From an uncultured bacterium (GTDB lineage Bacteria > Omnitrophota > Omnitrophia > Omnitrophales > Aquincolibacteriaceae): a stretch of 64,000 nucleotides of DNA. The notes under the pieces were generated by a model. That model was not told the DNA's origin. It worked only from the letters and a program-made list of their open reading frames with translations, and did not search any database. The position numbers and the translations under genes are program-made. Below, in pieces: positions 7,604 through 37,225 of this stretch (position 1 is its first letter; the number at the start of each line of letters is the position of its first letter). The stretch covers positions 85,571 to 149,570 of the forward strand of contig CAYSSX010000001.1 in NCBI GenBank assembly GCA_964434115.1, read 5' to 3'.

Positions 7604-7902
7604 CCTTCCCGGGCAGCGTCTCAACTCTAACGCTGCAGACTGCAAAAGACAAAGGACACTTCGTTCACGCGAAAGGCTTTGCCTTGAGGCGAACGGGATG
7701 TCCTTAAAAGATGTAAGTTTATGAAAATGCAGAGGTTGTCAAAATCGCCGGTTATTTAAACAAATCTAGACAAATGTTGTTTTTTTTAGACATTCTGAAA
7801 TTGAAACTAAGATAAGTGACTTTGATGACAAAGCTTTTTAATTGTAAGTCATTCAAAATAAACAAGTTACACAATGTTTTAAACAGGTTAGTTTGAAATT
7901 AG

Positions 7903-7920
7903 TTGGCATGGAAAGTGCAT
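7903..7920 (+). promoter_or_regulatory. Sigma-54 (RpoN) -24/-12 promoter candidate upstream of sugar transferase / PEP-CTERM genes
   Basis: TTGGCATGGAAAGTGCAT = TGGCAT(G)-N4-(G)TGCA with exact GG-N10-GC spacing versus consensus TGGCACG-N4-TTGCA. Lies in a 330-nt AT-rich intergenic region, about 55 nt before ATG 7977. Confidence 0.5.
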
Positions 7921-7976
7921 AGAGTCTGAATGCTGAAGTGCACTTATTCAAATATCCCCGTCATAAGGTGAGCAAA

Positions 7977-8732: not shown

Positions 8733-8796
8733 GAGAATGATTCCAGCTAGCGGGAATTACTTCTCTAATTTAAAAAAGAAAGGAGCTAGAAACAGC

Positions 8797-9504: not shown

Positions 9505-9553
9505 TTTTCTTTCAATAGTTGCTATAATCCTCAAACATTATAGTTAGCTATTT

Positions 9554-9594
9554 GGTAAGAGCTCCTTACCCTGGCCCCCGAAAGGGGGCCAGGG
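9554..9594 (+). terminator. Tandem hairpins after the PEP-CTERM gene (putative intrinsic terminator)
   Basis: GGTAAG-AGCTC-CTTACC followed by a perfect 11-bp GC stem CCCTGGCCCCC-GAAA-GGGGGCCAGGG (9569-9594). No clean downstream T-run, so efficiency is uncertain. Confidence 0.45.
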
Positions 9595-9654
9595 ACTACT
9601 TGAATAATAAATGAAACCGTAGTACAAAGAAGGCAGTGAATCTTAAGGAAGGAG

Positions 9655-10485: not shown

Positions 10486-10492
10486 AATTCCC

Positions 10493-11212
10493 ATGAAACA
10501 TTTTAAACGTTATTTGGCGGGCTTCCTTTGCGCGGTTCTTCCGAGCTGGAGCCTTTACGCGGCGGTGCCCGATATGCCGCTGGTTTTCACGCCCTCCGCT
10601 CTTCCGATTGAAGAGCCGGCTGAAAAATTCATTGGCTGGTATGACCTGGTCTATCAGGATCAGGTTGCGCCTCCCACAGTTCCGCAGGCGATTGTGGACG
10701 CCTTATTTCCCGACCAGGAAATTGCGCTTCCTCAGATCTCTGGCGGTGTTTCCGTGCCTCTCGAAAAGCTTTCTGATGCGGACCTGGAAGAAGAACTTCA
10801 GGACGAACTCCTTTTAGATGAGGATGCTGAAGGCGAGCATTCTTCGAAGAAGCGGCTGGTTGTCGGCCTTCTTATTCTCAGTGCAGCGCTCGGGGCGCTT
10901 CTCTTACTTCTTTCGGGTTCTGGCGGCGGCTCCGGTTCTGGAAGCGGCGGCTCGTCAGGAAATGGTGGTGACTCCAACGGTTCCACGCCTCCTCCTGTGG
11001 GCGGCGGCGGTACCGGCGGCGGGAATGGAACAGGCCCGGGTACGGGACCTGGTACCGGCGGTGGCGGCGGCCCTGGTGTTGGCGGCGGTCCCGGCGGTGG
11101 TGGTATTACTCCTTTCTCATTTCCGAACAATGTTCCCAATAACCCGGAACCTTCGACCCTGTTTTTGATTGGCCTTGGATTGTTGTTGCCTTTTTTGCGT
11201 AGAAAAGGATAA
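10493..11212 (+). CDS. PEP-CTERM sorting-domain protein, acidic N-terminal region plus long Gly/Pro-rich low-complexity region
   Basis: Signal peptide MKHFKRYLAGFLCAVLPSWSLYAAVP. C-terminus NPEPSTLFLIGLGLLLPFLRRKG. Internal SGSGGGSGSG...GTGPGTGPGTGGGGGPG tract. Confidence 0.8.
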   Translation: MKHFKRYLAGFLCAVLPSWSLYAAVPDMPLVFTPSALPIEEPAEKFIGWYDLVYQDQVAPPTVPQAIVDALFPDQEIALPQISGGVSVPLEKLSDADLEEELQDELLLDEDAEGEHSSKKRLVVGLLILSAALGALLLLLSGSGGGSGSGSGGSSGNGGDSNGSTPPPVGGGGTGGGNGTGPGTGPGTGGGGGPGVGGGPGGGGITPFSFPNNVPNNPEPSTLFLIGLGLLLPFLRRKG

Positions 11213-11221
11213 TCCGAGTTC

Positions 11222-12634
11222 ATGAGAAAAACGTTTTTCCTTTTTTTGCTCGCGGCCTTTGCTTTTTCAGGCTGCGGTAAAAACTATCTTGCCGAGAAAG
11301 AGTTCTTTAAAGCAGAACAGCTGCTGAAGGGACTCAATCTTTCCCAGAGCCTAGATCCGCTCGACCAGGCTGTTGATGCCTTTCGCTCGGTCGCGGACCG
11401 CTATCCAGGCACACCCAAGGCGCTTGAAAGTCTCCGCCTCATTTCCAATATGCGTCTTAAACAAAAAAAGTATGAGGAGGCGCGAGAGGCCATGACGGAA
11501 GTCATTCAGAGTTTCGCGGCTTCCCAGGATGCTATTGCAGATGCCCGTTACCGTATCGGGGAAATCTACGAGATTGAAGAGAAGTGGGATGCTGCCGAAA
11601 AGTATTTTTGGGAACTTTCCGAGTACAGCCCCCTTCACGCAAAAGGCCTTTACGCTCCGATCAAAATTCTCCTCAATTACCGCAGGACTAAAGATGACAA
11701 AGGCTTTGAACGCGCGTATGTCAAAGCGTTGGACCATTACGAAAGTCTCCTTAAACAGGTAGGCCCCATTGAAGCCTCCGCGCCTGTCCGGAATTATTTG
11801 GGAATGGTTCAGATGATTCACGAAGATGCGGACAAGGCTCTTGCGACCTGGCTTTCCATCCCGCTGGATTTTCCCAAAAGCCCGCATGCCTCCATGGCGA
11901 TTCTGGCCGCCGCCGAATTGAACTGGAAAAATAAGGAATACGAAAAAGCCGAAGCTTTATATCAGCGCTTTTTCACGGAATACCCGGGGCACCCCTTGAC
12001 TGGAAGAACCGCGATGACTCTTGGCCTTGCCTATCACAGCAAAGGGGACTTTACCAAATCCCGTGAATCTTATCAGCGCGCACTGGACAGCGGCGGTTAT
12101 GCAGAAAAATCCCCTGAGAGATCGGAATTGAAACTTCTCATGGCGCGCAGTTATCAGGATGAACTGCTCTGGGATGAGGCCGACGCCCTTTATCAGGAGA
12201 TCGAATTGGCTTACCCCAATTCGTCAGCGGCGCTTCAGGTCCCGTTAATGCGCGCAGACCATTTTAATGAAGTGGGTGAGACGGCTCAGGCGCTGGATAT
12301 TCTTGATAAAGCCATCCGGCATTATGAAGTTTTGGCGGCGAATCAAAAGGATCCGAAAATTGTGAGTTACGCCCAGCGTTTTCGCTCGCAGGCTTTAGCC
12401 CGTAAAGGGGCCTGGAAAGAAATTGTTGATGATATTGACAAACGCATGGCTGAAGAGACAACGCCGGTCCGCAAAGGCCGCTGGCTTTTCTTAAAAGCGC
12501 TTATGACACAGAATCGTTTAAAGGATTCGCCCAAGGCCATTGAGTTATACGAAAGTTTTCTGAATCTTTACCCCGGTCATCCCTTAGAAGCCCGGGCAAA
12601 GACCCAGCTCGAACTCCTCCGCAAGCCCGCTTAA
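11222..12634 (+). CDS. TPR-repeat lipoprotein
   Basis: Lipoprotein signal with lipobox FSGC (MRKTFFLFLLAAFAFSGCG). Multiple TPR-like helical repeats (YPGTP/YPGHP tetratricopeptide motifs). Cf. PEP-CTERM-system TPR lipoproteins. Confidence 0.75.
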   Translation: MRKTFFLFLLAAFAFSGCGKNYLAEKEFFKAEQLLKGLNLSQSLDPLDQAVDAFRSVADRYPGTPKALESLRLISNMRLKQKKYEEAREAMTEVIQSFAASQDAIADARYRIGEIYEIEEKWDAAEKYFWELSEYSPLHAKGLYAPIKILLNYRRTKDDKGFERAYVKALDHYESLLKQVGPIEASAPVRNYLGMVQMIHEDADKALATWLSIPLDFPKSPHASMAILAAAELNWKNKEYEKAEALYQRFFTEYPGHPLTGRTAMTLGLAYHSKGDFTKSRESYQRALDSGGYAEKSPERSELKLLMARSYQDELLWDEADALYQEIELAYPNSSAALQVPLMRADHFNEVGETAQALDILDKAIRHYEVLAANQKDPKIVSYAQRFRSQALARKGAWKEIVDDIDKRMAEETTPVRKGRWLFLKALMTQNRLKDSPKAIELYESFLNLYPGHPLEARAKTQLELLRKPA

Positions 12635-15553: not shown

Positions 15554-15704
15554 CCTGGCTGGAGGCCCTTTTCCGCGCCGTAAAAAACCCGTTGGCTTTC
15601 CCGCGAAAATCGCTATAATTAGTTCTTTCTAACTGGCCCCTTAGCCACGTGTTGCGACATTTGCCGCGAGCTTTCATAAAAATATCATCAAAAAGGAATT
15701 GCCC

Positions 15705-16904
15705 ATGTCTAAAGTAAAAACAATTCGGGATCTCTCTTTGAACGACAAACGCGTTCTTATCCGGGTGGATTACAACGTTCCCTTGAACGAAAAGGGTCAG
15801 ATTACGGATGATATCCGCATCGCGAAGTCGGTGGATACGATCCGCTACTGCCTTGAGCGTAATGCCCGCGTGATCCTGATGTCCCATTTGGGCCGCCCCA
15901 AGGGTGCGCCTGAGGCAAAGTATTCCTTAAAACCCGCGGCGGATCATCTTGCGAAACTTTTGGGGAAACCCGTGAAGCTTTTAGGGGATTGCGTAGGCCC
16001 TGAAGTTGAAAAAGCGGTTCAGGCCATGAAGTCCGGCGATGTGGTGATGCTGGAAAACCTCCGCTTTCATGCGGAGGAAACCAAAAATGACGCTGCGTTT
16101 GCCAAAAAACTTGCCTCGCTGGCGGATGTTTATGTGAATGACGCGTTTGGCGCGGCTCACCGTGCGCATGCCTCAACCGCTGGTGTGACGGAATATCTTC
16201 CTTCCGGAGCGGGATTTCTGATGTCCCGTGAACTTGAATATCTTGGAAAAGCTATTACGACCCCGGACCGTCCTTTTGTGACGATTCTCGGCGGCGCCAA
16301 AGTTTCTGATAAAATTAAGCTGATCAGCAATTTGATTGATAAAGCGGATACGATTCTTATCGGCGGCGCGATGGCCTATACCTTTTACAAGGTCATGGGG
16401 ATTGGTATTGGCAATTCCAAGTTTGAGCCGGACGGCGTTCCGGCTGCGGAACTTGCGCTCCGCAAAGCCAAGGAAAAGAATTTCCCGCTCATTTTTCCGG
16501 ATGACCGCGTGATAGCCCCTTCAATTGATGAAGCCTCCAAGGCGAAAGTCATTGATACCGAAATTCCCGACGGCTGGTCAGGTTTTGACATTGGCCCCAA
16601 AACCGTGGAAAGATACAAAGCGATTCTGGCCAATGCGAAAACCATTGTCTGGAATGGCCCCGTGGGACTGTTTGAAGTGAAGCCGTTTGATGAAGGAACC
16701 AAAGCCTTGGCGAAGTTTATCGCCGGACTCAAAGCGACCAAGATCATCGGGGGCGGAGATACGGCCGCAGCTGTCCGCGCGTTCGGCCTGGACACGCAGA
16801 TGTCGCATGTTTCCACAGGCGGCGGAGCATCGCTTGAATTTCTCGAAGGAACCCAACTTCCTGGTGTGACCGCGTTAGCCGAAAAAGCCGGAGCAGCCAA
16901 GTAA
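15705..16904 (+). CDS. pgk: Phosphoglycerate kinase
   Basis: MSKVKTIRDLSLNDKRVLIRVDYNVPL and full-length PGK motifs. AAAAAGGAA RBS. Confidence 0.95.
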   Translation: MSKVKTIRDLSLNDKRVLIRVDYNVPLNEKGQITDDIRIAKSVDTIRYCLERNARVILMSHLGRPKGAPEAKYSLKPAADHLAKLLGKPVKLLGDCVGPEVEKAVQAMKSGDVVMLENLRFHAEETKNDAAFAKKLASLADVYVNDAFGAAHRAHASTAGVTEYLPSGAGFLMSRELEYLGKAITTPDRPFVTILGGAKVSDKIKLISNLIDKADTILIGGAMAYTFYKVMGIGIGNSKFEPDGVPAAELALRKAKEKNFPLIFPDDRVIAPSIDEASKAKVIDTEIPDGWSGFDIGPKTVERYKAILANAKTIVWNGPVGLFEVKPFDEGTKALAKFIAGLKATKIIGGGDTAAAVRAFGLDTQMSHVSTGGGASLEFLEGTQLPGVTALAEKAGAAK

Positions 16905-16936
16905 CCACGGTCAAAAGCCGGAAACCTGAGGTGTTT

Positions 16937-17722
16937 ATGAAGAAGCCGTTTATTGCCGGAAACTGGAAAATGTACAAGACCCCCTCCGAGGCGGTGAGTC
17001 TTGTTCAAACCATTAAAGCCGGTGTTTCCCACAAAACCGATTGTGATATTGTCGTATGTCCTCCTTTCACAGCCCTTGCTTCAGTCACAAAACTTCTTGA
17101 AGATTCCTCTCTCGATCTTGGCGCTCAGAACATGCATTACGAAGCCGAAGGGGCTTTTACCGGAGAGATCTCTCCCTTGATGCTGAAAGACCTCGGATGC
17201 CGTTATGTGATTTTAGGGCACTCCGAACGCCGTCAGTTTTTCAAAGAAGATGATGAACTTATTAATAAAAAAGTCAGGACGGCCGTAAAGTACAGCCTGG
17301 TTCCGATTCTTTGCATCGGTGAAACCCTTGCGGAACGCGAAGCCCGCCAGTTTTTTGAAGTGGTGAAACGTCAGTTTGATGAAGGCCTTAAAGGGTTGAC
17401 CGGTGAAGAAGTGTCCAAGCTTGTGATTGCTTATGAGCCGGTTTGGGCCATTGGCACAGGTCAGACCGCGACTCCGGAGCAGGCGGAACAAATGCATTCT
17501 TACATTCGCCGTCTTTTGAATGAGAAGTACGGAAATGAAACGGCCTCCCGCGTGCCTTTGCTTTACGGCGGCAGTGTGAAGCCCGACAATATTGCTTCTT
17601 TGATGCGCAAACCGAATGTTGACGGTGCTCTTGTGGGCGGCGCGTCCTTGAAAGCCGAAACTTTTTCTCAAATCATTATGAATGCAACGGAAGCTTGTAA
17701 AACAGAGGTTCATCCTTCATGA
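16937..17722 (+). CDS. tpiA: Triosephosphate isomerase
   Basis: MKKPFIAGNWKMY...AYEPVWAIGTG. ORF track starts at GTG 16931; ATG 16937 preferred (GAGGTG RBS). Confidence 0.95.
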   Translation: MKKPFIAGNWKMYKTPSEAVSLVQTIKAGVSHKTDCDIVVCPPFTALASVTKLLEDSSLDLGAQNMHYEAEGAFTGEISPLMLKDLGCRYVILGHSERRQFFKEDDELINKKVRTAVKYSLVPILCIGETLAEREARQFFEVVKRQFDEGLKGLTGEEVSKLVIAYEPVWAIGTGQTATPEQAEQMHSYIRRLLNEKYGNETASRVPLLYGGSVKPDNIASLMRKPNVDGALVGGASLKAETFSQIIMNATEACKTEVHPS

Positions 17723-18275: not shown

Positions 18276-20339
18276 ATGAAAATCCAATCTACCGTTCCGA
18301 TTTCATCCAACCTCCGATATCTCAAGGGAATCGGTCCGAAGCGGGCTGAAACCCTTGAGAAAATTGGAATTCGCGATACGCGCGACCTGCTTTTTTATTT
18401 TCCCCGCCGTTATGAAGACCGCAGTCAATTCAAAAAAATAAGCGAGATAAAACCCGGAGATACCGTCACCCTCAAAGGGCGTATTTTGTCCGCGAATCTT
18501 AAGCGCCTCCGTCGTTTGACGATTCTTGAAGCTGTTCTTGGGGATGACAGTGGAATGATTCCCGCAGTCTGGTTCAACCAACCCTATCTTAAAAACCAAT
18601 TTACGCCGGAACGCGAAGTTGTTTTTTTCGGCAAAGCGGATTTTTATCAGGGGCGTTTTCAGCTGAATGCCCCGGAATATGAAATCCTTGAAGACCGAGA
18701 TGCTTCTATTCACACGGGCCGCATCACACCGATTTATCCTTTAACCGAAGGCCTTTATCAGAAGTCGCTCCGGACAATCCTTAGCGAAGTTGTTTCTCAG
18801 CAGGCCAAAAGCCTGGTGCAGGATTTTCTCCCCGAGAACTTCCGGTCTGCCAAGCGGTTAATGCCTCTCTTGGACGCGGTTCAGGAAATGCATTTTCCTT
18901 CTTCCTTTGAAGCTTTAAATCAAGCCCGGCGCCGCATCGTTTTTGATGAGTTTCTGCTTTTTGAAGTGACCCTGCTGGAAAAAATAAAGATGATGAAATC
19001 CCGCTTTCAAGCGCCGGAGTTTAAAGGCGCTTCGGGCCTTATCGCCAGGTTTGAAAAATCCCTGCCTTTTACTTTTACCGCGAGTCAGCAGCAGGCCTTG
19101 CGGGAAATTGCAGGTGACCTTGAAAAAGACCAGCCCATGAACCGGCTCTTGATGGGGGATGTGGGAAGCGGTAAAACCGTGGTGGCTGCTTTTGCCCTTT
19201 GGGCTGCCGCCGAAGCGGGTTATCAGGGAACGCTTCTTGTCCCCACGGAAACCCTCGCGCTGCAGCATTATGAAAACCTCAAACAGTTCTTCCAGCCTTT
19301 CGGCCTTTCAGTCCGTCTTCTTACGGCGGGGACCGAGGCCCCGGCGAGGGAGCGCCTGCTGGCAGAGTTGAAACAGGGGAAAGTCGCTTGCCTGATAGGA
19401 ACCCACGCCTTGCTGCAGGAGGACGTACTTTTTAAGTCTTTGGGAATCGTGGTCATCGATGAGCAGCACAAGTTTGGAGTTTATCAGCGCTGCCACTTGC
19501 TGAACCGGAGCCCCAGGCCTCATCAGCTGGTCATGACAGCGACCCCGATTCCCAGGACGCTGGCGCTGACGACTTATGGAGACCTTGATTTGTCTGCCAT
19601 GCGCGGTTTGCCCATGGGACGAAAACCGATTAAAACCTACTGGATCACGAGGGCTAAGCAGGCGCAGGTGTATGCGCATATTCTGGAAAAAATAAAGAAG
19701 GGCGAGCAGGCCTATTTCATTTTTCCGTTGGTTGAAGAGACCGAAAAAACGGACCTTCTCGCGGCGGTCACTGAATTTGAGCGCCTGCAGAAAGGGCCTT
19801 TCAGGGGAGTCAAAGCCGGGCTTGTCCACGGCCGGATGCCTTCGGCGGAGCGTGAGGCGGCCATGAAGTCTTTCAAACAAGGCGTCCTCCAGATTCTGGT
19901 GGCGACCTCTGTCATTGAAGTCGGAGTGGATAATCCCAACGCGACCGTGGTGGTTATCGAAAATGCGGAGCGTTTCGGACTTTCTCAGCTGCATCAAATG
20001 CGGGGGCGTATCGGCCGCGGAGAAAAAGATTCAGAGTGTTTTTTGTTCGGGGAACCTGCCACCGAGGAAGGGAAAAAGCGGCTGCGCACTCTGACAAGAA
20101 CCCAGGATGGCTTTGAAATCGCGGAAGCGGATCTTAAATTACGGGGACCGGGCGATTTTTGGGGAAAGAGGCAGAGCGGCGAACCCCTTTTCCGGGTGGC
20201 GAACCCAATCGAGGATGAGGCCCTGCTTATGGAAGCCCGGGAAGCGGCCCGTGAAATTGTCCAAAGCGGGGGATTTACGGACCAAGGCCCCTGGGCGTTA
20301 CTTAAAAATTATCTCGATCAATTTCCTATTCGCTATTAA
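18276..20339 (+). CDS. recG: ATP-dependent DNA helicase RecG
   Basis: Wedge/OB N-terminal region. Helicase motifs GDVGSGKT and DEQHKFG. C-terminal RecG domain. Confidence 0.95.
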   Translation: MKIQSTVPISSNLRYLKGIGPKRAETLEKIGIRDTRDLLFYFPRRYEDRSQFKKISEIKPGDTVTLKGRILSANLKRLRRLTILEAVLGDDSGMIPAVWFNQPYLKNQFTPEREVVFFGKADFYQGRFQLNAPEYEILEDRDASIHTGRITPIYPLTEGLYQKSLRTILSEVVSQQAKSLVQDFLPENFRSAKRLMPLLDAVQEMHFPSSFEALNQARRRIVFDEFLLFEVTLLEKIKMMKSRFQAPEFKGASGLIARFEKSLPFTFTASQQQALREIAGDLEKDQPMNRLLMGDVGSGKTVVAAFALWAAAEAGYQGTLLVPTETLALQHYENLKQFFQPFGLSVRLLTAGTEAPARERLLAELKQGKVACLIGTHALLQEDVLFKSLGIVVIDEQHKFGVYQRCHLLNRSPRPHQLVMTATPIPRTLALTTYGDLDLSAMRGLPMGRKPIKTYWITRAKQAQVYAHILEKIKKGEQAYFIFPLVEETEKTDLLAAVTEFERLQKGPFRGVKAGLVHGRMPSAEREAAMKSFKQGVLQILVATSVIEVGVDNPNATVVVIENAERFGLSQLHQMRGRIGRGEKDSECFLFGEPATEEGKKRLRTLTRTQDGFEIAEADLKLRGPGDFWGKRQSGEPLFRVANPIEDEALLMEAREAAREIVQSGGFTDQGPWALLKNYLDQFPIRY

Positions 20340-27569: not shown

Positions 27570-30500
27570 ATGCGCTTAAAGAAAGTTGAAATCGTCGGGT
27601 TTAAATCGTTCGCGGACCGCACGCTCGTTTACTTTGATAAAGGTGTCACGTGTGTGGTCGGACCGAACGGATGCGGTAAAAGTAATATCTCTGATTCCAT
27701 CCGCTGGGTGCTTGGAGAGCGCAGTGCGAAAATGCTCCGCGGTTCCAAAATGGAAGACGTTATTTTTGCCGGCACGCAGTTCCGCAAGCCCGTGGCTTTT
27801 GCCGAAGTGTCCCTGACGATTGATAACCAGGACCGCGGTCTTCCCATTGATTATAATGAAGTGACTCTGACCCGCCGTCTTCACCGCTCCGGTGAAAGTG
27901 AATACCTTATTAACAAAACCTCCTGCCGCCTCAAGGACGTCCAGGACCTTATTCTGGATACGGGTATCGGGTCCAGTTCCTACTCCATGATTGAGCAGGG
28001 CCGCATTGACCACATTTTGAATGCCGATGCGGATGAGCGCCGTTTTCTTATCGAAGAAGCCGCGGGCATTTCGAAGTACAAAGTCAAAAAAGATGAAGCC
28101 ATCCGTAAGCTTGAGCGCACGGAACAGAATCTTCTCCGTCTGCGTGATATTGTCACGGAAGTTCAGCGCAATATTCAGTACGCGGAGCGTCAGGCGCGCC
28201 GCGCGGAACGTTACCGGGAGCAATTCGAAAAACTGAAGGATCTTGAAATCCGCCGCGCTTTTTTTGAACTCGGGCAGATCAGTTCGATCAGCGGGGAACT
28301 GGAATCGGCAAAATCCCGTTATCAATCCGATATTGAAGGCATTGTGGGAACCATTGCCGAACTCCGCGCCGGCCAGGAAGGTTTGGCGCAGAGCCTTGCT
28401 GAAATCCTGGAACGTTATTCCGCGATTGAGTCCAAGCGTTATGACCTCAAGGGCCGTTACGAGCAGAACGACCAGCAGCTCAGGTTCAACCAGGAAAAGA
28501 AAATCGAGTTTGCGTCAAGAAGCGGACAGATTCAGCAGGAAAAAAGCCAGCTGGATCAGCAGATTCAGCGCAGCCAGACCGAAATTGAATTGAAACGTGA
28601 AGAAGTTGTTTCCATTGATGGCCAGAAACAGGATGTTCAGGTGGCCTTTGAAGCCGCGCGCCAGATGCTGGAGCAGGCGGAAAGCCATCTTGAAGCTTCC
28701 CGCACTCTTTTTAATGAAACCAAATCCGCGGGGTTTGAAGCGGCCAGTGAAGCCGCCAAGGTCCGTAATGATTATCACCGTCTCTGCGCTTTTCTGGAAA
28801 GTAATGTGGAGCAGAAAAAGAAGCAGGATGCGGGGGCCTCACGCTACCAGCAGGAACTTGAGCAATGGGCGGCGAGAAAAGAAGACTGCGAAAAAAGCCT
28901 TCGCGAGCTCGAGGAGCGGGTGGTGCTTCTCTCTGAGCAGAAGACCGTTCAGGAAGAACAGCTTAAAGGTTTAAAAGAGACGCTGGAATCCCTGGGCGAC
29001 AAGATTGAGAACGCCGAGCGACAGCTTCACGAAAAGCAAACCCGCCAGAACCTTCTTCATGAAATTGATGCCGCGGCGGGGCTTAGCCAGGAAGGTCTTC
29101 TGGAACACTTGTCCGGCGATGAACGTTCCCTGATGCGCCAGCTTCGTGACCTTCTTCATATTGAAGCCGGCTATGAATGGGCCGTTGAAGCTGTGCTTGG
29201 AGATTTTGCCAAGGCCCTGGTTACGGAGAACGGCGCGGCCGCCTCCAAATTGCTTCATGAAATGATTGAAAAGAAAAGCGCTCCCGCGGCGCTTTTGGTG
29301 AACCTGACCGCGGGGGACAGCTCTTTTCCGGAGGCCCCTGTTTCCCAGCTCCCCGAAGGCGAGTTGTTCTCAAGCCCGCTCCGCCGTTTTGTGAGTCTGG
29401 AAGAAAGTTACCGTCCGCTGCTGGAAAGTTTCTTTGAAAATGTTTTTGTGATTGAAAATCTTACGGACGAAAATTTTCTTGAGGTTTTGAAGAGCGCCGG
29501 CGCCTACCGCTTAGTGACCCGGGAAGGAACCCTGTTGGGGCCCCGCGGCCGTGTGTTTTTCCGCCAAGGGCAGTTAAGCGCGGAGCAGAATCTTTTTAAA
29601 CGGGGCACGGAAATCGAGACGCTGAGCACGGAAATCCGTGAATTGGAACGTAATGAATCCAGCTGGAAGCAGGAAGCTGAACGCATGCTCCAGGAAGCGC
29701 AGCAGCTGGACGAAGGCGTGAAACTGACGGATGCCGAGATCCTTGAAACCAAACTTCAGCGGGAATCATTTGAATCCCTGCGCAAGGGGCTTCAGGACCG
29801 GCTGGGGACTTTCCAGCGTGAGCTGGACCTTATTTTTAATGAACAGGAAGAAATGAAGACCCGCGAAGAGGAAGCTATTGCTCAGCGGACCCAGCTCGAA
29901 ATTGAGTTGATGCGTACGGAAGAAAAACAGCGTCAGATCCGCAATGAGCAGGAAAACCTGATCCGCGACATGGAACGCATGGAGCGCTCGAAAGCCGAAG
30001 CCCTCCGTGATTTCTCTGATCAAAAGGCCCGCCTTGACGGCCTTCGCCAGCGCGAAAAATTTCTCGAAGAAGCCTGTAAGCTTTTGAGCGAGCAGCAGAA
30101 CCGCGACCGGAGCCGTATCGAAATTCTGGACACGGAAACGGCCCGCATTCAAGACCGCGAGCAGGCGCTGAATGTGGAAGATGAACGCATTCGCCAGGAG
30201 CAGCAGGAATTGAATGTCAGTCTTCAGGAAACGGATTTGAATCTCGCCCTTGTCCGTCAGGAGCGCGACAAGACCCAGCAGGAGATTCAGCAGATTGAAC
30301 AAATGCTGATTGAGAGCCAGGACAAAAAGCATCAGATTGAAGAAGAACTCCACGAAATTGAAAAGAAAGTCATGGATCTCGGGTATCAGGAAAAGAATAT
30401 CCATGAACGCCTGCTGCAATCCTATAAAATCGAACTCTCCGCGTTTCAGCCCGAACTTTTTGCTCTGTCGGAAGCGGACCATCCGGCTGTGGCAGCCCAG

Positions 30501-31223
30501 GTCGATGAACTCCGCCAGAAGATCGAATCCATTGGGACCGTCAACCTGCTTGCGATCGAAGAGTACGATGAGCTGAAACAACGGTATGAATTTTTGCAGA
30601 CTCAGCAGAAGGATTTGGAAGAAGCCCGTGATTCGTTGATGGAAGCCATCCGCAAAATCAACCGCACGACCAAAGGGCTTTTTGAAACTACTTTCCAAGA
30701 AGTCCAGAAGGCGTTTGGCGAATACTACCAGACCCTTTTCCGCGGCGGTGAAGCCAAACTGGTTCTCATTGATGAGTCCAACCCGCTGGAATCCGGCGTG
30801 GACATTGTGGTCCGTCCTCCGGGGAAGAAGCTGCAGCACATGAGCCTTCTTTCCGGCGGTGAAAAAGCGATGACCGCGATGGCGCTGCTTTTCTCGCTGT
30901 TTAAGATCAAGCCGTCGCCCTTCTGCGTGCTGGACGAAGTGGACGCGCCTCTTGACGAAGCGAACGTGGACCGCTTCCTCGCGGTACTCAAGACTTTTCT
31001 TCAGTCGTCCCAGTTTATTATTGTGACGCACAACCGTAAAACGATTGCCATGGGCGATTCTCTTTACGGGGTCACGATGCAGGAGGCGGGAGTTTCGAAG
31101 ATCGTTTCGGTGAAGATCAGCCAGGACGCTCAGAACGAAGCCTTTGAAGACCAGAAGGTTGCGGCCTCGGCGGTTCAGGAAAGTGCTGCGGCACCGGAAG
31201 CTGAAAACCCGGAAAATTCTTGA
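27570..31223 (+). CDS. smc: Chromosome segregation protein SMC
   Basis: Walker A GPNGCGKSN. Long coiled coils with central hinge. C-terminal signature LSGGEKAMTAMALLFSLF and Walker B CVLDEVDAPLD. Confidence 0.95.
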   Translation: MRLKKVEIVGFKSFADRTLVYFDKGVTCVVGPNGCGKSNISDSIRWVLGERSAKMLRGSKMEDVIFAGTQFRKPVAFAEVSLTIDNQDRGLPIDYNEVTLTRRLHRSGESEYLINKTSCRLKDVQDLILDTGIGSSSYSMIEQGRIDHILNADADERRFLIEEAAGISKYKVKKDEAIRKLERTEQNLLRLRDIVTEVQRNIQYAERQARRAERYREQFEKLKDLEIRRAFFELGQISSISGELESAKSRYQSDIEGIVGTIAELRAGQEGLAQSLAEILERYSAIESKRYDLKGRYEQNDQQLRFNQEKKIEFASRSGQIQQEKSQLDQQIQRSQTEIELKREEVVSIDGQKQDVQVAFEAARQMLEQAESHLEASRTLFNETKSAGFEAASEAAKVRNDYHRLCAFLESNVEQKKKQDAGASRYQQELEQWAARKEDCEKSLRELEERVVLLSEQKTVQEEQLKGLKETLESLGDKIENAERQLHEKQTRQNLLHEIDAAAGLSQEGLLEHLSGDERSLMRQLRDLLHIEAGYEWAVEAVLGDFAKALVTENGAAASKLLHEMIEKKSAPAALLVNLTAGDSSFPEAPVSQLPEGELFSSPLRRFVSLEESYRPLLESFFENVFVIENLTDENFLEVLKSAGAYRLVTREGTLLGPRGRVFFRQGQLSAEQNLFKRGTEIETLSTEIRELERNESSWKQEAERMLQEAQQLDEGVKLTDAEILETKLQRESFESLRKGLQDRLGTFQRELDLIFNEQEEMKTREEEAIAQRTQLEIELMRTEEKQRQIRNEQENLIRDMERMERSKAEALRDFSDQKARLDGLRQREKFLEEACKLLSEQQNRDRSRIEILDTETARIQDREQALNVEDERIRQEQQELNVSLQETDLNLALVRQERDKTQQEIQQIEQMLIESQDKKHQIEEELHEIEKKVMDLGYQEKNIHERLLQSYKIELSAFQPELFALSEADHPAVAAQVDELRQKIESIGTVNLLAIEEYDELKQRYEFLQTQQKDLEEARDSLMEAIRKINRTTKGLFETTFQEVQKAFGEYYQTLFRGGEAKLVLIDESNPLESGVDIVVRPPGKKLQHMSLLSGGEKAMTAMALLFSLFKIKPSPFCVLDEVDAPLDEANVDRFLAVLKTFLQSSQFIIVTHNRKTIAMGDSLYGVTMQEAGVSKIVSVKISQDAQNEAFEDQKVAASAVQESAAAPEAENPENS

Positions 31224-31795
31224 ATCTTCCCAACACCCTGACAATTCTCCGGATCCTGATAAGCCCGTTTTTTTTCACGGCGCTTCTTTACTACGCCGCC
31301 GGAAATGAACACTGCAGGATTCTTGCCGCGGTTCTTTTTACCGCCGCAGCGCTGACGGATGCTGCCGATGGTTTGCTGGCCCGCATCCTGGATCAGCGCA
31401 CGCCCCTTGGAAAATTCCTCGATCCGCTTGCGGACAAACTTCTGCTTTTGAGCGGCTTTTTGGGGCTTCTTTTTGTGGACACGCTCCGCTATCATCCGCC
31501 GCTTTGGATTATTGTCACGATTGTGTTCCGGGACCTTGTGATTCTTGGCGGGCTGCTGGTTGTTTTTCTGGCCACAGGAACGGTGAACATCCGGCCTGAT
31601 TTTTTGGGAAAGACGACGACCGCGGTTCAGATGGCAGCCCTGATTGCCATTCTTATGCAGTGGCGTTTATCGGTTTTTCTTTGGTTTGCCGCGGCCTTGC
31701 TGACCGCTGCTTCCTGCGCGGTTTATATGCTGCGCGAACTTAAAAGCCTCAAATATTTTCATCACCCCGTAGCTTCGAAAGGTCAGGAACCATGA
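31220..31795 (+). CDS. pgsA: CDP-alcohol phosphatidyltransferase (phosphatidylglycerophosphate synthase-like)
   Basis: DAADGLLAR...G...D...D motif (DAADGLLARILDQRTPLGKFLDPLADK). TTG start overlapping smc stop (TTGA). Confidence 0.75.
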   Translation: MNLPNTLTILRILISPFFFTALLYYAAGNEHCRILAAVLFTAAALTDAADGLLARILDQRTPLGKFLDPLADKLLLLSGFLGLLFVDTLRYHPPLWIIVTIVFRDLVILGGLLVVFLATGTVNIRPDFLGKTTTAVQMAALIAILMQWRLSVFLWFAAALLTAASCAVYMLRELKSLKYFHHPVASKGQEP

Positions 31796-32400
31796 ATTTT
31801 TTTCAGCTGCTCCTTTTCTCTCTCCTCGCTTATTTTCTTGGCAGTATCCCGTTCGGACTTCTGGTGGCTAGGCAGGTCCAGGGGATTGATATCCGCGAAC
31901 ACGGAAGCAAGAACACGGGCGCCACGAATGTGTTTCGTGTGGTGGGAAAAAAATGGGGATTTCTTGTCCTTTTTCTGGATGCGCTGAAAGGGGCTTTGGC
32001 GGTTTTCATTCCCGTGTTTTTCTTTCCGGAACTTTCCTTTGCGTGGAAGTCGCTTTTTGCCGTGACCGCGATTCTCGGACACAGTTTTTCCGTGTGGATC
32101 CAGTGGAAAGGCGGCAAGGGAGTGGCGACATCCTTGGGGGTTTTTCTGGCGCTCACGCCCCAGGCGACCTTGCTGACGCTCGCCGGCTGGATTTTGGTGT
32201 TCGTTATATCCCGCACAATCTCGATCGCGTCCTTGTCCGCGGCCGTTATTTTCCCGGTCGTGGTGTTGGTTTTTTTTCGGGGCGGGGAGGCGTTTCCCGT
32301 TCTTATGCCGTTGAGTCTTGTTCTCGGGGCCTTTATTTTTTACACGCACCGCGCTAATATCGGGCGGATCCTTAAAGGAGAAGAGAAAAAACTTATTTAA
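31792..32400 (+). CDS. plsY: Glycerol-3-phosphate acyltransferase PlsY
   Basis: GSKNTGATNVFRVVGKKWGFLV... motif; multi-TM. Confidence 0.9.
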   Translation: MNFFQLLLFSLLAYFLGSIPFGLLVARQVQGIDIREHGSKNTGATNVFRVVGKKWGFLVLFLDALKGALAVFIPVFFFPELSFAWKSLFAVTAILGHSFSVWIQWKGGKGVATSLGVFLALTPQATLLTLAGWILVFVISRTISIASLSAAVIFPVVVLVFFRGGEAFPVLMPLSLVLGAFIFYTHRANIGRILKGEEKKLI

Positions 32401-32485
32401 ATTAGTAAAAATTTAATTGACTTAAAGTAAAGTATTTGTTAGTGTCTCTTTGCCGATACCTGTTTCCTTCATCCCAGGAGGAAAC

Positions 32486-32800
32486 ATGAACAAATTTTCT
32501 AGAACCCTTATCCATTCCGTTCCCACCAGCAGTGAAGAAGAACTGCAATTCGCGATTACCCAATATGAAGACCGTTACTATGTCGATGTCCGTCTGTGGT
32601 TCAGGGCTCCTGAATCAAAAGGGCTTCGTCCGAGCCGGAAAGGACTGTCACTTCCCATGCACCGCCTCTCAGGGCTTCGCGAAGGAATCGAAATTGTGTC
32701 CGAGGCCATGGCGAAGAACGGCTTTCCCCAAAAACAATCCAGAGAAAGAAAACCCGGGACTGAAAAAGGCTCGCCGAACGGCCGGGGGCATGCGGATTAA
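32486..32800 (+). CDS. Small PC4/YdbC-like putative ssDNA-binding protein
   Basis: AGGAGG RBS before ATG 32486. YEDRYYVDVRLWF...PSRKGLSLPMHRLSGLREGI resembles the bacterial transcriptional-coactivator-p15 (PC4) fold signature (KGISL). Immediately upstream of recA. Confidence 0.5.
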   Translation: MNKFSRTLIHSVPTSSEEELQFAITQYEDRYYVDVRLWFRAPESKGLRPSRKGLSLPMHRLSGLREGIEIVSEAMAKNGFPQKQSRERKPGTEKGSPNGRGHAD

Positions 32801-32917
32801 GGGCTTTACACCCTTTGCCTAACCCAGTAAAATATGCGGACTTGCATTCATTTGCAGCGTCCGTCTAAATAATTTTCATTCCATTTTCAGTAAAAATTCC
32901 TCTCAGGAGAAGACTCC

Positions 32918-33979
32918 ATGGTGAAGAAACCCGAAAAAGATTCAAAGCAGGAAATTTCTGCGGCTTCGAACAAGGTCACGCAGGAAAAACACAAAGCGCT
33001 TGAACTTGCCCTGCTTCAGATCGAAAAACAGTTTGGTAAAGGCTCGATTATGAAAATGGGCGATGAACGCCGCGAGCCTGTCCAGAGCATTTCCACGGGC
33101 GCGTTAAGCCTGGATATTGCAACCGGTGTGGGCGGTATTCCCCGGGGCCGTGTGGTGGAAATCTACGGTCCGGAATCGAGCGGTAAGACCACTTTGACGC
33201 TGAGCATTATTTCCCGTGTTCAGGCCGAAGGCGGTGTCGCGGCCTTTATTGACGCCGAACATGCCCTGGATCCAACGTATGCGCAGAAAATCGGCGTGAA
33301 GCTGGATGATCTTTTGATTTCTCAGCCGGATTCCGGCGAGCAGGCTTTGCAGATCGCCGAAATGCTGGTCCGCTCCAACGCCGTGGATCTTATCGTGATC
33401 GATTCCGTGGCCGCCCTTGTTCCGAAAGCGGAAATCGAAGGGGATATGGGGGACTCTCACATGGGGCTGCAAGCGCGCCTTATGTCGCAGGCCCTCCGCA
33501 AACTGACCGGAATCATCAGCCGTTCCAAAACCAGCATGATTTTTATCAATCAGATCCGCGACAAGATTGGCGTCATGTTTGGCAACCCGGAAACAACCAC
33601 GGGCGGTAAGGCTTTAAAGTTCTACGCCTCAATGCGTCTCGATATCCGCCGCATTGAGAGCCTTAAAAAGGGCGATGAAATTATCGGCAACCGCGTCAAG
33701 GTCAAGGTTGTCAAAAATAAAGTCGCGGCACCCTTCAAGATCGCGGAATTCGATATTCTTTTTGAAGAAGGCATCTCGCGTTCTTCCAGTATTCTGGATC
33801 TGGGAATCGAACAGCAGGTCCTTGAAAAATCCGGATCGTGGATTCTTTATGGACAGGAAAAGCTTGGGCATGGCCGCGACGCGGCCCGTCTGTTCCTCAA
33901 GGAAAACAAAAAGCTGCTTGAAGAAATTGAAGATAAGGTCCGGACCAAGATGATGGGGGAAGCGGCGGTTGTAGCCTGA
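32918..33979 (+). CDS. recA: Recombinase RecA
   Basis: Walker [10 protein letters not shown]; L1/L2 loop regions; full-length RecA. Confidence 0.97.
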
Positions 33980-34013
33980 TCGCCGGCCTGCTTCGAAAAT
34001 CCAGCTTTTCGAT

Positions 34014-34571
34014 TTGCTCCTGCCGATCATGAATCAAGAAAAAGATCCGCTGAAGGCCGATGCTTTATCCCTGGAAAAAGAGGCCTGGAATTTTGCGCTT
34101 AAAATATTAGGGATCAGCCCCAAAAGCCGGAACGAAATGATTGAGAGGCTGAAAACCAAGGGCTATACCGGGGGCCTCGCGGAAAAGACCGCGGCAAGGC
34201 TTGAAGCCGTGGGCTTTTTGAATGACCGCGCTCTGGCGGCGGGGCTTGTGGCCAGAATGGCCGCCTCACGGAAAGGTTTTGGCAAACGCAAGGCCGCTTT
34301 TGAACTCAAAAGGCGGGGTTTTGACGCGGCCGCTGCCGCCGAAGCCCTGGAGGCATTGACCGGGGAAGTTCAAAAAGAGTCCGCGGAGGTTTTAGCTCAG
34401 GCGCTCTGGGCGAAAACCGGAAAAATGCCGTTCCTCAAGCGGAAAAAGAAATTGTTCGACACTCTCGTCCGCCGCGGGTTTGATTTTGGAATGACCCAGC
34501 AGGTGATTGAGAAAGTGATCCGGGATTCCGGAGACAAAAGCACGGAAGATGACGCGGCTGAATTTTCTTAA
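34014..34571 (+). CDS. recX: RecA regulator RecX
   Basis: Three tandem helical repeats typical of RecX. recA-recX-alaS synteny. Confidence 0.8.
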   Translation: MLLPIMNQEKDPLKADALSLEKEAWNFALKILGISPKSRNEMIERLKTKGYTGGLAEKTAARLEAVGFLNDRALAAGLVARMAASRKGFGKRKAAFELKRRGFDAAAAAEALEALTGEVQKESAEVLAQALWAKTGKMPFLKRKKKLFDTLVRRGFDFGMTQQVIEKVIRDSGDKSTEDDAAEFS

Positions 34572-34582
34572 GGAAAGCAGAT

Positions 34583-37225
34583 ATGAAAACTGACGAAATC
34601 AGGAAAACCTACCTTCGATTTTTTGAGAAGAACGCGCACCGGATCGTGGGCAGCGACTCCCTTGTTCCTCAAAATGACCCCACCCTTTTATTCACGGGCG
34701 CGGGCATGAATCAATTCAAAGAAAATTTTCTGGGGATCAAAAAAGATTTGAAGCGCGCGACCACGAGCCAGAAATGCCTTCGCACCGGGGACCTCGAAGA
34801 GGTGGGCCGCACGGCTTTTCACCATTCCTTTTTTGAAATGCTCGGTAATTTTTCTTTTGGAGATTATTTCAAGCGTGAGGCGATTCATTGGGCCTGGGAA
34901 TTTTTGACCGTGGAGGTAAAAATCCCAAAAGACCGCCTGCGCGTCAGTGTCCACCAGAGTGATGATGAAGCCTTTGCGATTTGGAAAAACGAGATTGGCC
35001 TCCGCGCGGACTGGATCTATAAGCTCGGGGACAAGGATAACTTTTGGCCGTCCAATGCGCCGAAGGATGGACCGAACGGTCCCTGCGGCCCTTGCTCGGA
35101 AATTTATTTTGATCAAGACCCCTCTCAGGGCGACGGGGGAACGGTTCAGGACAAGCGTTTTGCGGAAATCTGGAACCTTGTTTTTACACAGTTTGACCGC
35201 CAGGACGGCGGCAAGCTTGTGCCGCTTGCCCAGAAAAATATTGATACCGGGATGGGGCTTGAACGCCTTTCCTGCGTGCTTCAAGGCAAGACCACCAATT
35301 ACGAGATTGATATTTTCCAGCCGATCAATGCGGCCATTGAGCGTGCTTTGGGCCTTGCTGAGCGCAGTGTTCAGGGACCGGAGAGAAGCCATCTTTACGC
35401 GGTCAGTGATCATGTGCGGGCCATTGTTTTTTCCATGGCCGACGGCGTGATTCCTTCCAATGAGGGGCGCGGGTATGTGATCCGTAAATTGATCCGGCGT
35501 GCGCTTTGGCGCGCGCACCACATTCTTGCTTCAGCCGGGGGCGGTACGAGGCAGGAACTTAAAGGCGCTTTTTTGTATAAGATTGTTCCTGTGGTGGTAT
35601 CGGTCATGGCCCCGGCTTACCCGGAGCTTAAGGACGCGGAAAAAAGCATCACCGCGACCTTGAAAGGCGAAGAGGACCGTTTTCTTGACACGCTTGAAAC
35701 CGGCCTCCGGATTCTTGAAAGCCGGATCGCCGACCTGGATAAAAAGAAGTCCAAGGTTATTCCGGGGCAAATTGTGTTCGAGCTTTATGACACGTATGGT
35801 TTCCCGGACGAGTTGACGCGCATGATTGCGGAATCCCGCGGGCTTGAAATTGATAACGCGGGCTTTGATACGCAGATGGAAGAACAGCGCCGCCGCGCCA
35901 AACAGGCCACGCAGATTTCCGGGAGCATATTTACGGCGACCGAGCTTGAGAAAAAACTGGGTTCGCTTGCCCCGACGCGTTTCCTTGGGTATTCGGCCCT
36001 TGAAAGCGAAGCCGGTGTCCTGCTCGCGGATTTAGAAGGCGGTAAAGGGGTGGTGCTTCTCGATCAGACGCCTTTTTATGGTGAAAGCGGAGGGCAGGCC
36101 GGGGATCTTGGAACGCTTGAAAACGCTTCCTTCAAGGCCGTTGTCTTGGACACCCAGAAAAAAGATTCCTTTGTCCTTCATCTTGTGGAAGTTCAGAAAG
36201 GAAGCCTGAAGCCGGGCGATAAAGTCACCGCCCGCGTGGATGCCGAGCGCCGCGCCAGCACCATGCGGAATCATACGGCCACGCACCTTCTTCATGCCGC
36301 GCTTCGTTCTGTTCTGGGTCCTCAAGTGCGCCAGCTTGGTTCTTTGGTGGCCGCAGACCGTCTTCGTTTTGACTTCTCTCATTCTCAAGCGCTGAGCGCG
36401 GAGGAATTAAAAAAGATCGAGGACCAGGTTAATAGCGAAATTCTTTCGGACAAGGCTGTGTCCAAGGAAGAGAAGCCGGTGGAAGAGGCCAAGAAGGACG
36501 GCGCGCTCGCCTTTTTTGGTGAAAAGTATGGAGCGCTGGTCCGCGTGGTGACGATCCCTGGATTCAGCAAAGAATTTTGCGGGGGAACCCATTGCGACCG
36601 CACAGGGCAGATCGGAAGTTTTGTGATCACAAGTGATTCATCGATCGCAAGCGGAACGCGCCGGATTGAGGCGCTTACAGGTTCGGGTGCGCTGAATTAC
36701 CTGCGTGAACTGCGCGCCCAGATTGGTGAGCTTTCCGTGTCGTTGAAAACAACGCCTGAAAAGCTGGCTGAGAAAGTTTCCAAGCTTCAGGACACGATCA
36801 AAAAGATGGAGAAGGAAAAGAAGCAGAGCTCCGTGATTTCTGCGGATCCCAAGGCGATTTTGAATCAAGCCCTTACGGCGGGGGCTTTCAAGGTCGCGCG
36901 CCACAAGCTTCCGGAAGGCGCGGGCGTGGATGAACTTCGGGGGCTTTCCGATTCGCTGCGTTCCATGAGTTCAAAGACGATTTATTTTCTTGGAACGGAA
37001 AGCGAAGAGAAGGTGCATTTTGTAATCGGTTTAAGCCCTGACCTAGTGCAAGGTCCTCTGGACGCCCGTGAAGCCATGAAGACACTCGCGCCTCTTGTGG
37101 GCGGAAGCGGCGGCGGCCGCAAGGAATTGGTACAGGGCGGCGCCCGCAACCAGGGGCAGTTTAAAGACCAGTGGGACAAGATTGTGGAAAATCTGACCTC
37201 CTATGTGAATGAAAGGAACGGCTGA
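34583..37225 (+). CDS. alaS: Alanine--tRNA ligase
   Basis: Class II catalytic core, editing domain HxxxH...CGGTH, and C-terminal DHHA1-like region. Confidence 0.95.
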   Translation: MKTDEIRKTYLRFFEKNAHRIVGSDSLVPQNDPTLLFTGAGMNQFKENFLGIKKDLKRATTSQKCLRTGDLEEVGRTAFHHSFFEMLGNFSFGDYFKREAIHWAWEFLTVEVKIPKDRLRVSVHQSDDEAFAIWKNEIGLRADWIYKLGDKDNFWPSNAPKDGPNGPCGPCSEIYFDQDPSQGDGGTVQDKRFAEIWNLVFTQFDRQDGGKLVPLAQKNIDTGMGLERLSCVLQGKTTNYEIDIFQPINAAIERALGLAERSVQGPERSHLYAVSDHVRAIVFSMADGVIPSNEGRGYVIRKLIRRALWRAHHILASAGGGTRQELKGAFLYKIVPVVVSVMAPAYPELKDAEKSITATLKGEEDRFLDTLETGLRILESRIADLDKKKSKVIPGQIVFELYDTYGFPDELTRMIAESRGLEIDNAGFDTQMEEQRRRAKQATQISGSIFTATELEKKLGSLAPTRFLGYSALESEAGVLLADLEGGKGVVLLDQTPFYGESGGQAGDLGTLENASFKAVVLDTQKKDSFVLHLVEVQKGSLKPGDKVTARVDAERRASTMRNHTATHLLHAALRSVLGPQVRQLGSLVAADRLRFDFSHSQALSAEELKKIEDQVNSEILSDKAVSKEEKPVEEAKKDGALAFFGEKYGALVRVVTIPGFSKEFCGGTHCDRTGQIGSFVITSDSSIASGTRRIEALTGSGALNYLRELRAQIGELSVSLKTTPEKLAEKVSKLQDTIKKMEKEKKQSSVISADPKAILNQALTAGAFKVARHKLPEGAGVDELRGLSDSLRSMSSKTIYFLGTESEEKVHFVIGLSPDLVQGPLDAREAMKTLAPLVGGSGGGRKELVQGGARNQGQFKDQWDKIVENLTSYVNERNG

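Follow-up and report, generated by a model that had tools for sequence, protein, structure and literature searches.

A PC4-like gene directly upstream of recA in a lineage of uncultured Omnitrophota: a candidate accessory factor for RecA

The gene immediately upstream of recA in an uncultured bacterium of the Omnitrophota (GTDB family Aquincolibacteriaceae; assembly GCA_964434115.1, contig CAYSSX010000001.1, positions 85,571 to 149,570) encodes a small protein of the PC4 fold, and it is this gene, its junction with recA and the control elements around both that are considered here. The stretch analysed, 64,000 nucleotides (nt) in all and hereafter called the window, carries plsY, the PC4-like gene, recA, recX and alaS in that order and on the same strand (Table 1). 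An earlier sequence-only reading of this DNA had described a PC4-like protein of 104 amino acids, starting at position 32486 and lying 117 nt before recA, with a YVD/KGLSL signature. The coordinates are correct, exactly 117 nt separating the stop codon from the recA ATG, and the signature is present as YYVDVRLW and RKGLSLP. The PC4-like gene has a GGAGGA ribosome-binding site (RBS) 4-9 nt 5' of its ATG. A longer open reading frame (ORF), initiated by TTG at 32450, was rejected as the gene because every homologue starts at the equivalent methionine. The recA RBS is kept as AGGAG or AGGGG in orthologous leaders. The recX ORF as mechanically listed begins at TTG 34014; the ATG used here comes from the gene call on an identical contig (L001). 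The PC4-like gene lies within a core housekeeping block, and its base composition is ordinary.

The upstream neighbour of recA encodes a PC4-fold protein of the type that binds single-stranded DNA (ssDNA), binding itself being predicted. A profile search bears out the family assignment: the protein matches Pfam PF02229 with a score of 29.9 bits, above the gathering cut-off of 25 (E = 4e-7; positions 5-51 of the 52 in the profile), and precomputed matches to the same family exist on all of its homologues. Searched against PDB sequences, a profile of 21 family members finds BPSL1147 (5a4n, 2.4e-9), human PC4 (1pcf, 1.4e-7), a protein of phage T5 (4bg7, 3.6e-5) and MoSub1. The AlphaFold model, built on the family alignment and as a monomer only, has a mean predicted local distance difference test score (pLDDT) of 80, with values of 84-95 over residues 1-80. 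It contains four strands (residues 4-13, 18-27, 30-40 and 47-57) followed by a 21-residue helix (58-78); the folded core spans residues 1-83, and the C-terminal tail (84-104) is basic and predicted to be disordered. The best Foldseek match is again 5a4n, with a target-normalised TM of 0.86, a root-mean-square deviation of 1.5 A over 67 columns and 27% identity, and ranks 1-9 are all PC4-fold structures (5a4n, 5a4o, 4bg7, 4bhm, 4agh, 5zg9), with BPSL1147, the T5 protein and MoSub1 at the top.

The residues expected to touch DNA can also be followed. Profile alignment to human PC4 (1pcf/4usg) equates Y27 with F77, R36 with R86, F39 with W89, P49 with P98, K52 with K101 and G53 with G102, and places R51 and K52 together at human R100/K101; in human PC4 these residues are positions of ssDNA stacking and phosphate contact. 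Within the family D34, R36, W38, P49, K52 and G53 are invariant or nearly so, which for R36, W38 and K52 was seen across 31 members. The protein would be a homodimer that binds ssDNA. As to a phage origin, tblastn of the protein against 50,697 phage records gave zero matches, and the gene is therefore not a recent phage acquisition.

Table 1. Coordinates of genes and control elements around the PC4-like gene and recA in the window
Feature	Positions	Strand	Details
plsY	31792-32400	+	followed by an 85-nt gap to the PC4-like ORF
Putative sigma-70 promoter of the PC4-like gene	32417-32445	+	-35 TTGACT 32417-32422, 17-nt spacer, -10 TAGTGT 32440-32445
RBS-sequestering hairpin in the PC4-like 5' untranslated region (predicted)	32461-32486	+	UGUUUCCUUC (32461-32470) pairs with GGAGGAAACA (32477-32486)
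PC4-like gene (ssDNA-binding-type protein, 104 amino acids)	32486-32800	+	ATG 32486, TAA 32798-32800; Pfam PF02229
recA sigma-70 promoter	32805-32833	+	-35 TTTACA 32805-32810, 17-nt spacer CCCTTTGCCTAACCCAG, -10 TAAAAT 32828-32833
Predicted recA 5' stem-loop	32838-32862	+	25 nt; from fold energy and partial covariation
recA ribosome-binding site	32905-32909	+	AGGAG, 8 nt before the ATG; read from the sequence
recA	32918-33979	+	353 amino acids; Pfam RecA 465 bits, RecA_C 69 bits
recX	34029-34571	+	180 amino acids; ATG 34029; Pfam RecX_HTH1, HTH2, HTH3; NCBIfam RecX
alaS	34583-37225	+	follows recX

The association with recA extends well beyond a single contig. An exhaustive HMMER scan detected 273 cluster representatives of the family at E <= 1e-3 and 28 at E <= 1e-10, all of them small (about 75-125 amino acids). 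The lineage itself is rare, with one match among 185,579 GTDB species representatives and one among JGI contigs. The neighbourhood was recovered for nine lineages (handles between L001 and L025), in which identity of the PC4-like protein to the query runs from 100% down to about 25%. The order plsY - PC4-like - recA is found in nine of nine, and the longer contigs extend it to fabF - smc - (pgsA) - plsY - PC4-like - recA - recX - alaS - hisD, with fabF of the window assigned through ketoacyl-synthase Pfam matches on its syntenic counterpart in related loci. Where contig ends cut recA, its place next to the PC4-like gene was verified by tblastn (79-84% identity); the window RecA shares 79-84% identity with its counterparts that follow the PC4-like genes in L019, L022, L024 and L025. 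The PC4-like proteins fall to 25-35% identity between lineages, and third-codon positions are saturated (41-46% identity). Two side observations belong to this block. The gain or loss of pgsA, which separates smc from plsY in the window, L011, L022 and L024 and is missing from this place in L003, L006, L008 and L019, is the only rearrangement in the otherwise collinear segment from fabF to hisD (window 27570-32400). RecA of this lineage carries a Lys/Glu-rich N-terminal extension, about 20 residues long in the window and about 20-30 across lineages, which precedes the usual KQKALE...IEKQFGKG start and differs in sequence by lineage (window 32918-32990; L024 from 1837, L025 from 1371).

The recA gene has a promoter of its own, and it is fused to the end of its neighbour. 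It is the sole promoter-like site called by a scan of positions 31700-34700, agrees with the consensus at 10 of 12 positions and starts 4 nt past the PC4-like stop codon; CTTTACA-N17-TA(A/G)AAT is found in all nine lineages. The 30-nt block, spacer included, is 90-97% identical among near lineages, compared with the 41-46% at third-codon positions of the adjacent gene. Sigma-70 promoter spacers are not normally constrained in sequence. Here the 17-nt spacer (32811-32827, within the block 32804-32833) is nearly as conserved as the -35 and -10 boxes, and its 3' part, CTAACYCAG, beside the -10 box, is retained even in the distant lineages L024 and L025. A further factor, or an unusual sigma requirement, may read this spacer; none of the explanations tested accounts for its conservation. 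A sigma-32-type reading was set aside by inspection, the CCCC core not being kept across lineages and the spacing being off, and the spacer motif TTTGYCTAACCCAG, tried as a regulon motif, shows no enrichment in the window. A scan called no terminator-like site between 32400 and 32918.

The fusion goes furthest in L024, where the last 10 codons of the PC4-like gene contain the recA promoter (region 1772-1803, with CTTTACA at 1772-1778 and TAGAAT at 1796-1801). The -10 box TAGAAT overlaps the stop codon there, the same bases coding for protein and forming the promoter, and in the L024 subfamily (P0165-P0168) the DNA of the spacer and -10 box encodes a conserved C-terminal (A/S)NSV(K/E). A view of L024 as a pure operon without a recA promoter, drawn from its 33-nt gap, was wrong: the promoter sits in the last PC4-like codons. 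In the near clade the C-terminal aspartate of the PC4-like protein is invariant despite the variable tail before it (window 32795-32800 and orthologues), and its codon and the stop (GAT TAA/TAG) sit 4-9 nt 5' of the recA -35 box. This residue may reflect a constraint on the DNA instead of on the protein.

Upstream, the PC4-like gene has its own putative sigma-70 promoter. The -35 box TTGAC(T/A) is present in 9 of 10 aligned upstream regions (TTGATT in L010), and 17 nt 3' of it relatives carry a -10 box of the TAnnnT type (TAAGAT, TAAAAT, TACAAT; TATACA in one). The TAGTGT of the window is weak, at 3 of 6 positions, and the consensus scan did not call this promoter. A resemblance between the PC4 and recA promoters in the window (CTTTGCCGATACC and CTTTGCCTAACCC) was judged to be chance; the PC4 leader of relatives keeps only GCCGA of it, at a different place relative to the promoter.

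Between this promoter and the start codon lies a predicted hairpin whose 3' arm takes in the entire GGAGGA site and the A of the AUG. Its energy in the window is -13.1 kcal/mol (z = -3.2), and the same topology recurs in 11 of 11 distinct leaders (z from -1.7 to -4.8), usually with the first base of the AUG included. In alignment A5, 93% of the hairpin cells are paired, as against 43-64% with slid partners, and the covariation score of 0.351, compared with 0.267 in shuffles, is reached by none of 500 of these; two pairs have changed on both sides. The arms themselves differ by lineage: GUUUCC/GGAAAC, GCUUCC/GGAAGC, GUUUUC/GAAAAC, GAAUUCUCC/GGAGAAUUU and GCCUCCU/AGGAGGU, with 15 base pairs in L024. 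Neither the PC4-like leader nor that of recA has an Rfam match at the gathering threshold, and at E <= 10 positions 32350-32960 give one spurious match to a long non-coding RNA. Judged by its pairing across leaders, the hairpin is a conserved, covarying candidate for translational control that belongs to no described Rfam family, such as the ROSE or fourU thermometers. Candidates for what opens it are temperature, ribosome standby or the PC4-like protein itself, as in the autoregulation of phage ssDNA-binding proteins.

A second predicted RNA structure lies at the other end of the gene, at the start of the recA message. The sequence-only reading had pointed to a direct repeat, TTGCA-N5-TTGCA, in the recA leader. 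The repeat is there, as TTGCATTCATTTGCA at 32842-32856; it does not exceed chance and its second copy is not conserved. Since TGCA is its own reverse complement, the two copies can pair as the arms of a hairpin. They (32842-32846 and 32852-32856) make the inner helix of the stem-loop, UUGCA pairing with UGCAG, flanked by GGAC/GUCC. The fold has an energy of -11.9 kcal/mol (z = -4.3; 0 of 200 shuffles equally stable) and begins 5-7 nt after the -10 box, at the predicted transcription start (about 32838-32841). What is conserved past the -10 box is ACTTGC-N3-CATTT (32840-32853), found in 6 of 8 distinct leaders, which forms the 5' arm and loop of the structure. The second TTGCA is absent from all seven of the other distinct orthologous leaders aligned, where TTTATA, TTTACT or TTTGTA replaces it. 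The outer helix differs by lineage: GGAC/GUCC in the window and L010, GAAC/GUUC in L003 and L014, AAAC/GUUU in L008 and AGGGUU/AACCCU in L019, where the fold reaches -16 kcal/mol (z = -5.2); in L025 and L022 the partner of the conserved UUUGC is a distant GCAAA or GCGAA. Loops of the relatives' helices range from 6 to >20 nt, and the distance to the complementary arm from 6 to >40 nt. Applied to a MAFFT alignment of the recA leaders, RNAalifold gave no consensus structure, the 3' arms being misaligned by indels in the loops; the comparison of the helices relies on inspection and on folds of single sequences, a weaker kind of evidence. The variability of arm sequence and spacing favours a nucleic-acid hairpin over a protein operator. 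The two TTGCA copies are best read as the arms of such a hairpin, placed where the recA message begins, and nothing observed marks the repeat as a damage-response operator.

Taken together, these observations suggest to us, at about an even chance, that the locus is a lineage-specific PC4-like - recA - recX module, in which an accessory ssDNA binder helps or modulates RecA and recA expression involves read-through and a 5' stem-loop. The PC4-like protein would act as a dimer in RecA-dependent recombination or repair, in a way comparable to SSB, the PC4-like SSB of phage T5 and SP_0782. It would probably be scarce because the RBS hairpin throttles its translation. Transcripts from the PC4-like promoter would read through into recA-recX, so that recA would be served by two promoters, this one and its own, and the 5' stem-loop may stabilise the recA mRNA, as suggested by analogy. 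The lack of a called terminator-like site between the genes and a recA promoter that touches or runs into the last part of the PC4-like gene both favour such a module. These two features and the invariant position of the gene lend indirect support to the earlier proposal of an accessory ssDNA binder co-regulated with recA. The case for co-regulation is limited by the separate promoter of recA, in which no motif of the PC4-like promoter recurs.

Several points weigh against this module. The promoters of the PC4-like gene and recA have no motif in common. The stability of the RBS hairpin ranks only 7th among 50 start regions in the window, so the case for it rests on its conservation (only the energy rank is used from this comparison, its pairing-probability control being poorly positioned and uninformative). 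The recA stem-loop is uneven: its z ranges from -5.2 to -0.2 across lineages and is unremarkable (-0.2 to -0.55) in L010, L025 and L022, the short L024 leader has no evident helix, and the ends of the folded segments were picked after the folds had been seen. Were transcription to start at A32840, the usual choice, seven bases past the -10 box, the RNA would lack two base pairs of the covarying outer helix. In addition, the whole block of about 10 kb from fabF to hisD is syntenic, with RecA about 80% identical, and plsY is an equally constant neighbour of the PC4-like gene.

This last point leads to the alternative that we take most seriously, unlikely as we consider it to be: that the adjacency is inherited and nothing else, the PC4-like protein being a general ssDNA- or RNA-binding housekeeping protein without a specific tie to RecA, active for example in replication, in protection of transcription bubbles or as an RNA chaperone. 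Given that gene order throughout the block is the same in every lineage and that RecA is so similar, the adjacency of the PC4-like gene and recA may reflect shared descent. The gene would also be controlled separately, through its putative promoter and the hairpin over its RBS, and published surveys report bacterial PC4 homologues in genomic contexts that vary, with no link to recA (Rossi et al. 2013, PMC3575825). Pure inertia would have to be reconciled with the divergence of the proteins to 25-35% identity, the saturated third-codon positions and the coming and going of pgsA; yet the junction has remained extremely tight throughout, the recA promoter still touching or overlapping the PC4-like stop codon.

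We think it improbable that the PC4-like protein instead controls recA, sensing ssDNA or binding either the melted or hairpin-forming promoter region of recA or its mRNA leader, as a functional stand-in for LexA. Such a role would recall the part played by PC4 as a cofactor in eukaryotic transcription. Melted DNA is bound by PC4 proteins, and YdbC is described in the literature as disrupting duplexes and binding single-stranded RNA as well. The only PHROG match of the protein is labelled "transcriptional regulator" and is weak (E = 0.0012). There is also an inverted repeat at the transcription start, and because conservation of the recA spacer and of the block at +1 far exceeds that of neutral sites, some factor probably reads them; nothing ties the conserved spacer to the PC4-like protein. 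Characterised PC4-fold proteins bind ssDNA without sequence specificity according to the literature, and the arms of the inverted repeat vary in sequence and spacing by lineage.

Equally doubtful, in our judgement, is the possibility that the hairpin at 32838-32862 serves the upstream gene, as a weak terminator, a 3'-end stabiliser or a processing site of the PC4 transcript. Its outer helix, from G32838, begins 5 nt past the -10 box and would be complete in read-through RNA, perhaps not in RNA from the recA promoter. The stem has no U-tract behind it and was not called in the terminator scan, and L024, with its short leader, has no evident hairpin even though the PC4-like gene ends there.

Very unlikely, in our view, is the remaining explanation, in which the TTGCA repeat or ACTTGC-N3-CATTT binds a LexA-like or other damage-responsive repressor and the PC4-like gene and recA form a damage regulon, as the sequence-only reading had offered in proposing a non-canonical operator. 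The block does lie where repressors typically bind, at about +1 to +17 relative to the recA promoter, and is conserved in most of the leaders. There is a precedent as well: in A. baumannii the TetR-family repressor EppR is reported to bind the DNA that encodes the recA 5' untranslated region (UTR). No known LexA box is present; the classical palindromes CTGT-N8-ACAG and GAAC-N4-GTTC are absent from both intergenic regions, as had been noted of the recA leader, and exact matching with 13 LexA-box consensi (these two and 11 others) found none in either promoter region of eight lineages, the window and seven relatives. The matches seen were coincidences in coding sequence and a degenerate CCT-N10-AGG whose position is not conserved. 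A perfect GAAC-N4-GTTC palindrome, similar to a Cheo box, does occur inside the PC4-like coding sequence of L008 (5055-5066) and L010 (930-941); it lies in codons for EELQF, the window carries GAACTGCAATTC at that position, and as a LexA box it was judged a coding coincidence.

The repeat itself gives the operator little to stand on. Against an expectation of 0.19, the 64 kb contain a single TTGCA-N5-TTGCA, and at least one copy turns up in 18 of 100 dinucleotide shuffles. ACTTGC-N3-CATTT at <=2 mismatches has 10 matches in the window against 23 expected, and is thus not enriched. Neither motif occurs again within the 64-kb window; no copy of the repeat lies upstream of recG (18276-20339), and the motif is missing from the PC4 promoter. 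With no orthologue keeping the second copy and the complementary arm lying anywhere from 6 to >40 nt away, the spacing is no better conserved, and the TTGCA stem-loop is most probably not a repressor binding site. Of the genes that such a regulon might include, none of uvrA, uvrB, lexA, dinB, ruv and recN was found within the window, which has no classical SOS gene besides recA and where tblastn with E. coli LexA gave nothing better than E = 1. Only a slight chance, finally, attaches to the PC4-like protein being a damage-response sensor-regulator, kept scarce by the RBS hairpin and binding both damage ssDNA and the recA +1 region or leader in place of a LexA/operator circuit, a reading that, if true, would account for the unusual conservation of the recA promoter and leader as well as for the unbroken junction of the two genes.

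Comparison with known systems places the protein among characterised relatives. BPSL1147 of Burkholderia pseudomallei (5a4n/5a4o), the best match by profile and by structure, is likewise a small bacterial single-domain PC4-fold protein; unlike the PC4-like protein it has 75 amino acids, lacks the basic disordered tail of about 25 residues and has no reported linkage to recA. Some Burkholderia PC4 genes have phage integrases or transposases upstream (Rossi et al. 2013, PMC3575825). The C-terminal domain of human PC4 and yeast Sub1 (1pcf, 2c62) has PF02229 in common with our protein, and the aromatic and basic ssDNA-contact positions align. Human PC4, a cofactor of eukaryotic Pol II, also has a regulatory region at its N-terminus, whereas the PC4-like protein consists of the core and a C-terminal tail only and is encoded in a bacterial recombination neighbourhood. 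The phage T5 protein (4bg7) shares the fold and is the third-ranked Foldseek match; it is phage-encoded and only 12-19% identical, and the title of its PDB entry implicates it in recombination-dependent DNA replication. YdbC of Lactococcus lactis (DUF2128) and SP_0782 of Streptococcus pneumoniae are bacterial dimeric PC4-like ssDNA binders, but they belong to another Pfam family (PF09901) and are monocistronic, in variable contexts and without adjacency to recA. SP_0782 is induced eight-fold in competence, a RecA-dependent process (PMC7145681).

The organisation around recA also has parallels. In Acinetobacter baumannii, where recA has no classical LexA box either, the 5' UTR of the gene also contains a stem-loop; E. 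coli ompA is another message with a stabilising stem-loop at its 5' end. The A. baumannii element is species-specific, its effect has been measured and it has no sequence relation to ours, whereas the recA stem-loop described here is predicted, with partial covariation. In A. baumannii the stem-loop stabilises the transcript and compensatory mutations restore stability, according to two articles (PMC13492130, PMC7509114) that cite Ching et al. 2017. The gene order of the window has a counterpart in Firmicutes and Enterobacteria as well, since both show recA-recX-alaS with a small accessory gene 5' of recA and pgsA is nearby here too. There the arrangement is cinA/pncC - recA - recX - alaS, with pgsA nearby in Bacillus subtilis. 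The slot upstream of recA is thus filled by a PC4-fold gene in the one and by cinA in the other, and the two proteins are unrelated.

The rest of the window is described for completeness. About 50 successive genes over 58 kb (window 1-58408) all lie on the + strand while cumulative GC skew climbs steadily, and the earliest minus-strand genes start at 59342. No tRNA genes and no Rfam families at gathering score were found in the whole 64 kb. Besides fabF, smc, pgsA and plsY, the window encodes two pairs of histidine kinase and sigma-54 response regulator, pgk, tpiA, secG, recG, rsmD, coaD, plsX, the his and trp operons, dnaK, MoxR/VWA genes and gap. An exopolysaccharide/exosortase cluster (XrtA-like, EpsI) occupies positions 733-12634; at its head stands a 1119-residue protein whose sole Pfam matches are PcRGLX-like (rhamnogalacturonan-lyase-type) domains, and three of its ORFs (8737-9504, 9655-10485 and 10493-11212) have no NCBIfam match. 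The pgk and tpiA genes (15699-17722) are adjacent and separate, and the best NCBIfam model for both is the fused bifunctional PGK/TIM enzyme (PRK13962).

PC4-fold ssDNA binders are already known in bacteria and phage (BPSL1147, YdbC, SP_0782, T5), and the protein described here represents a new subfamily, whose link to recA is conserved and goes unreported in the literature searched. Unusual in this subfamily are the fusion of promoter and gene and the conserved translational hairpin. To our knowledge, bacterial PC4-fold proteins have characterised structures and no assigned cellular role. The fixed position of this subfamily directly 5' of recA-recX suggests the hypothesis of an SSB-like or mediator-like accessory factor of RecA, which, uncultured as these bacteria are, could still be examined with recombinant proteins. 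If the adjacency is merely inherited, the result would be an ordinary annotation, a small ssDNA-binding protein beside a normally organised recA. The modulators of the RecA filament at present include SSB, RecFOR, DprA, RecX, DinI and RdgC. If the hypothesis is true, it would add a new fold to them, and would tie this bacterial lineage to the genome-stability roles of eukaryotic PC4/Sub1 and of the plant Whirly proteins.

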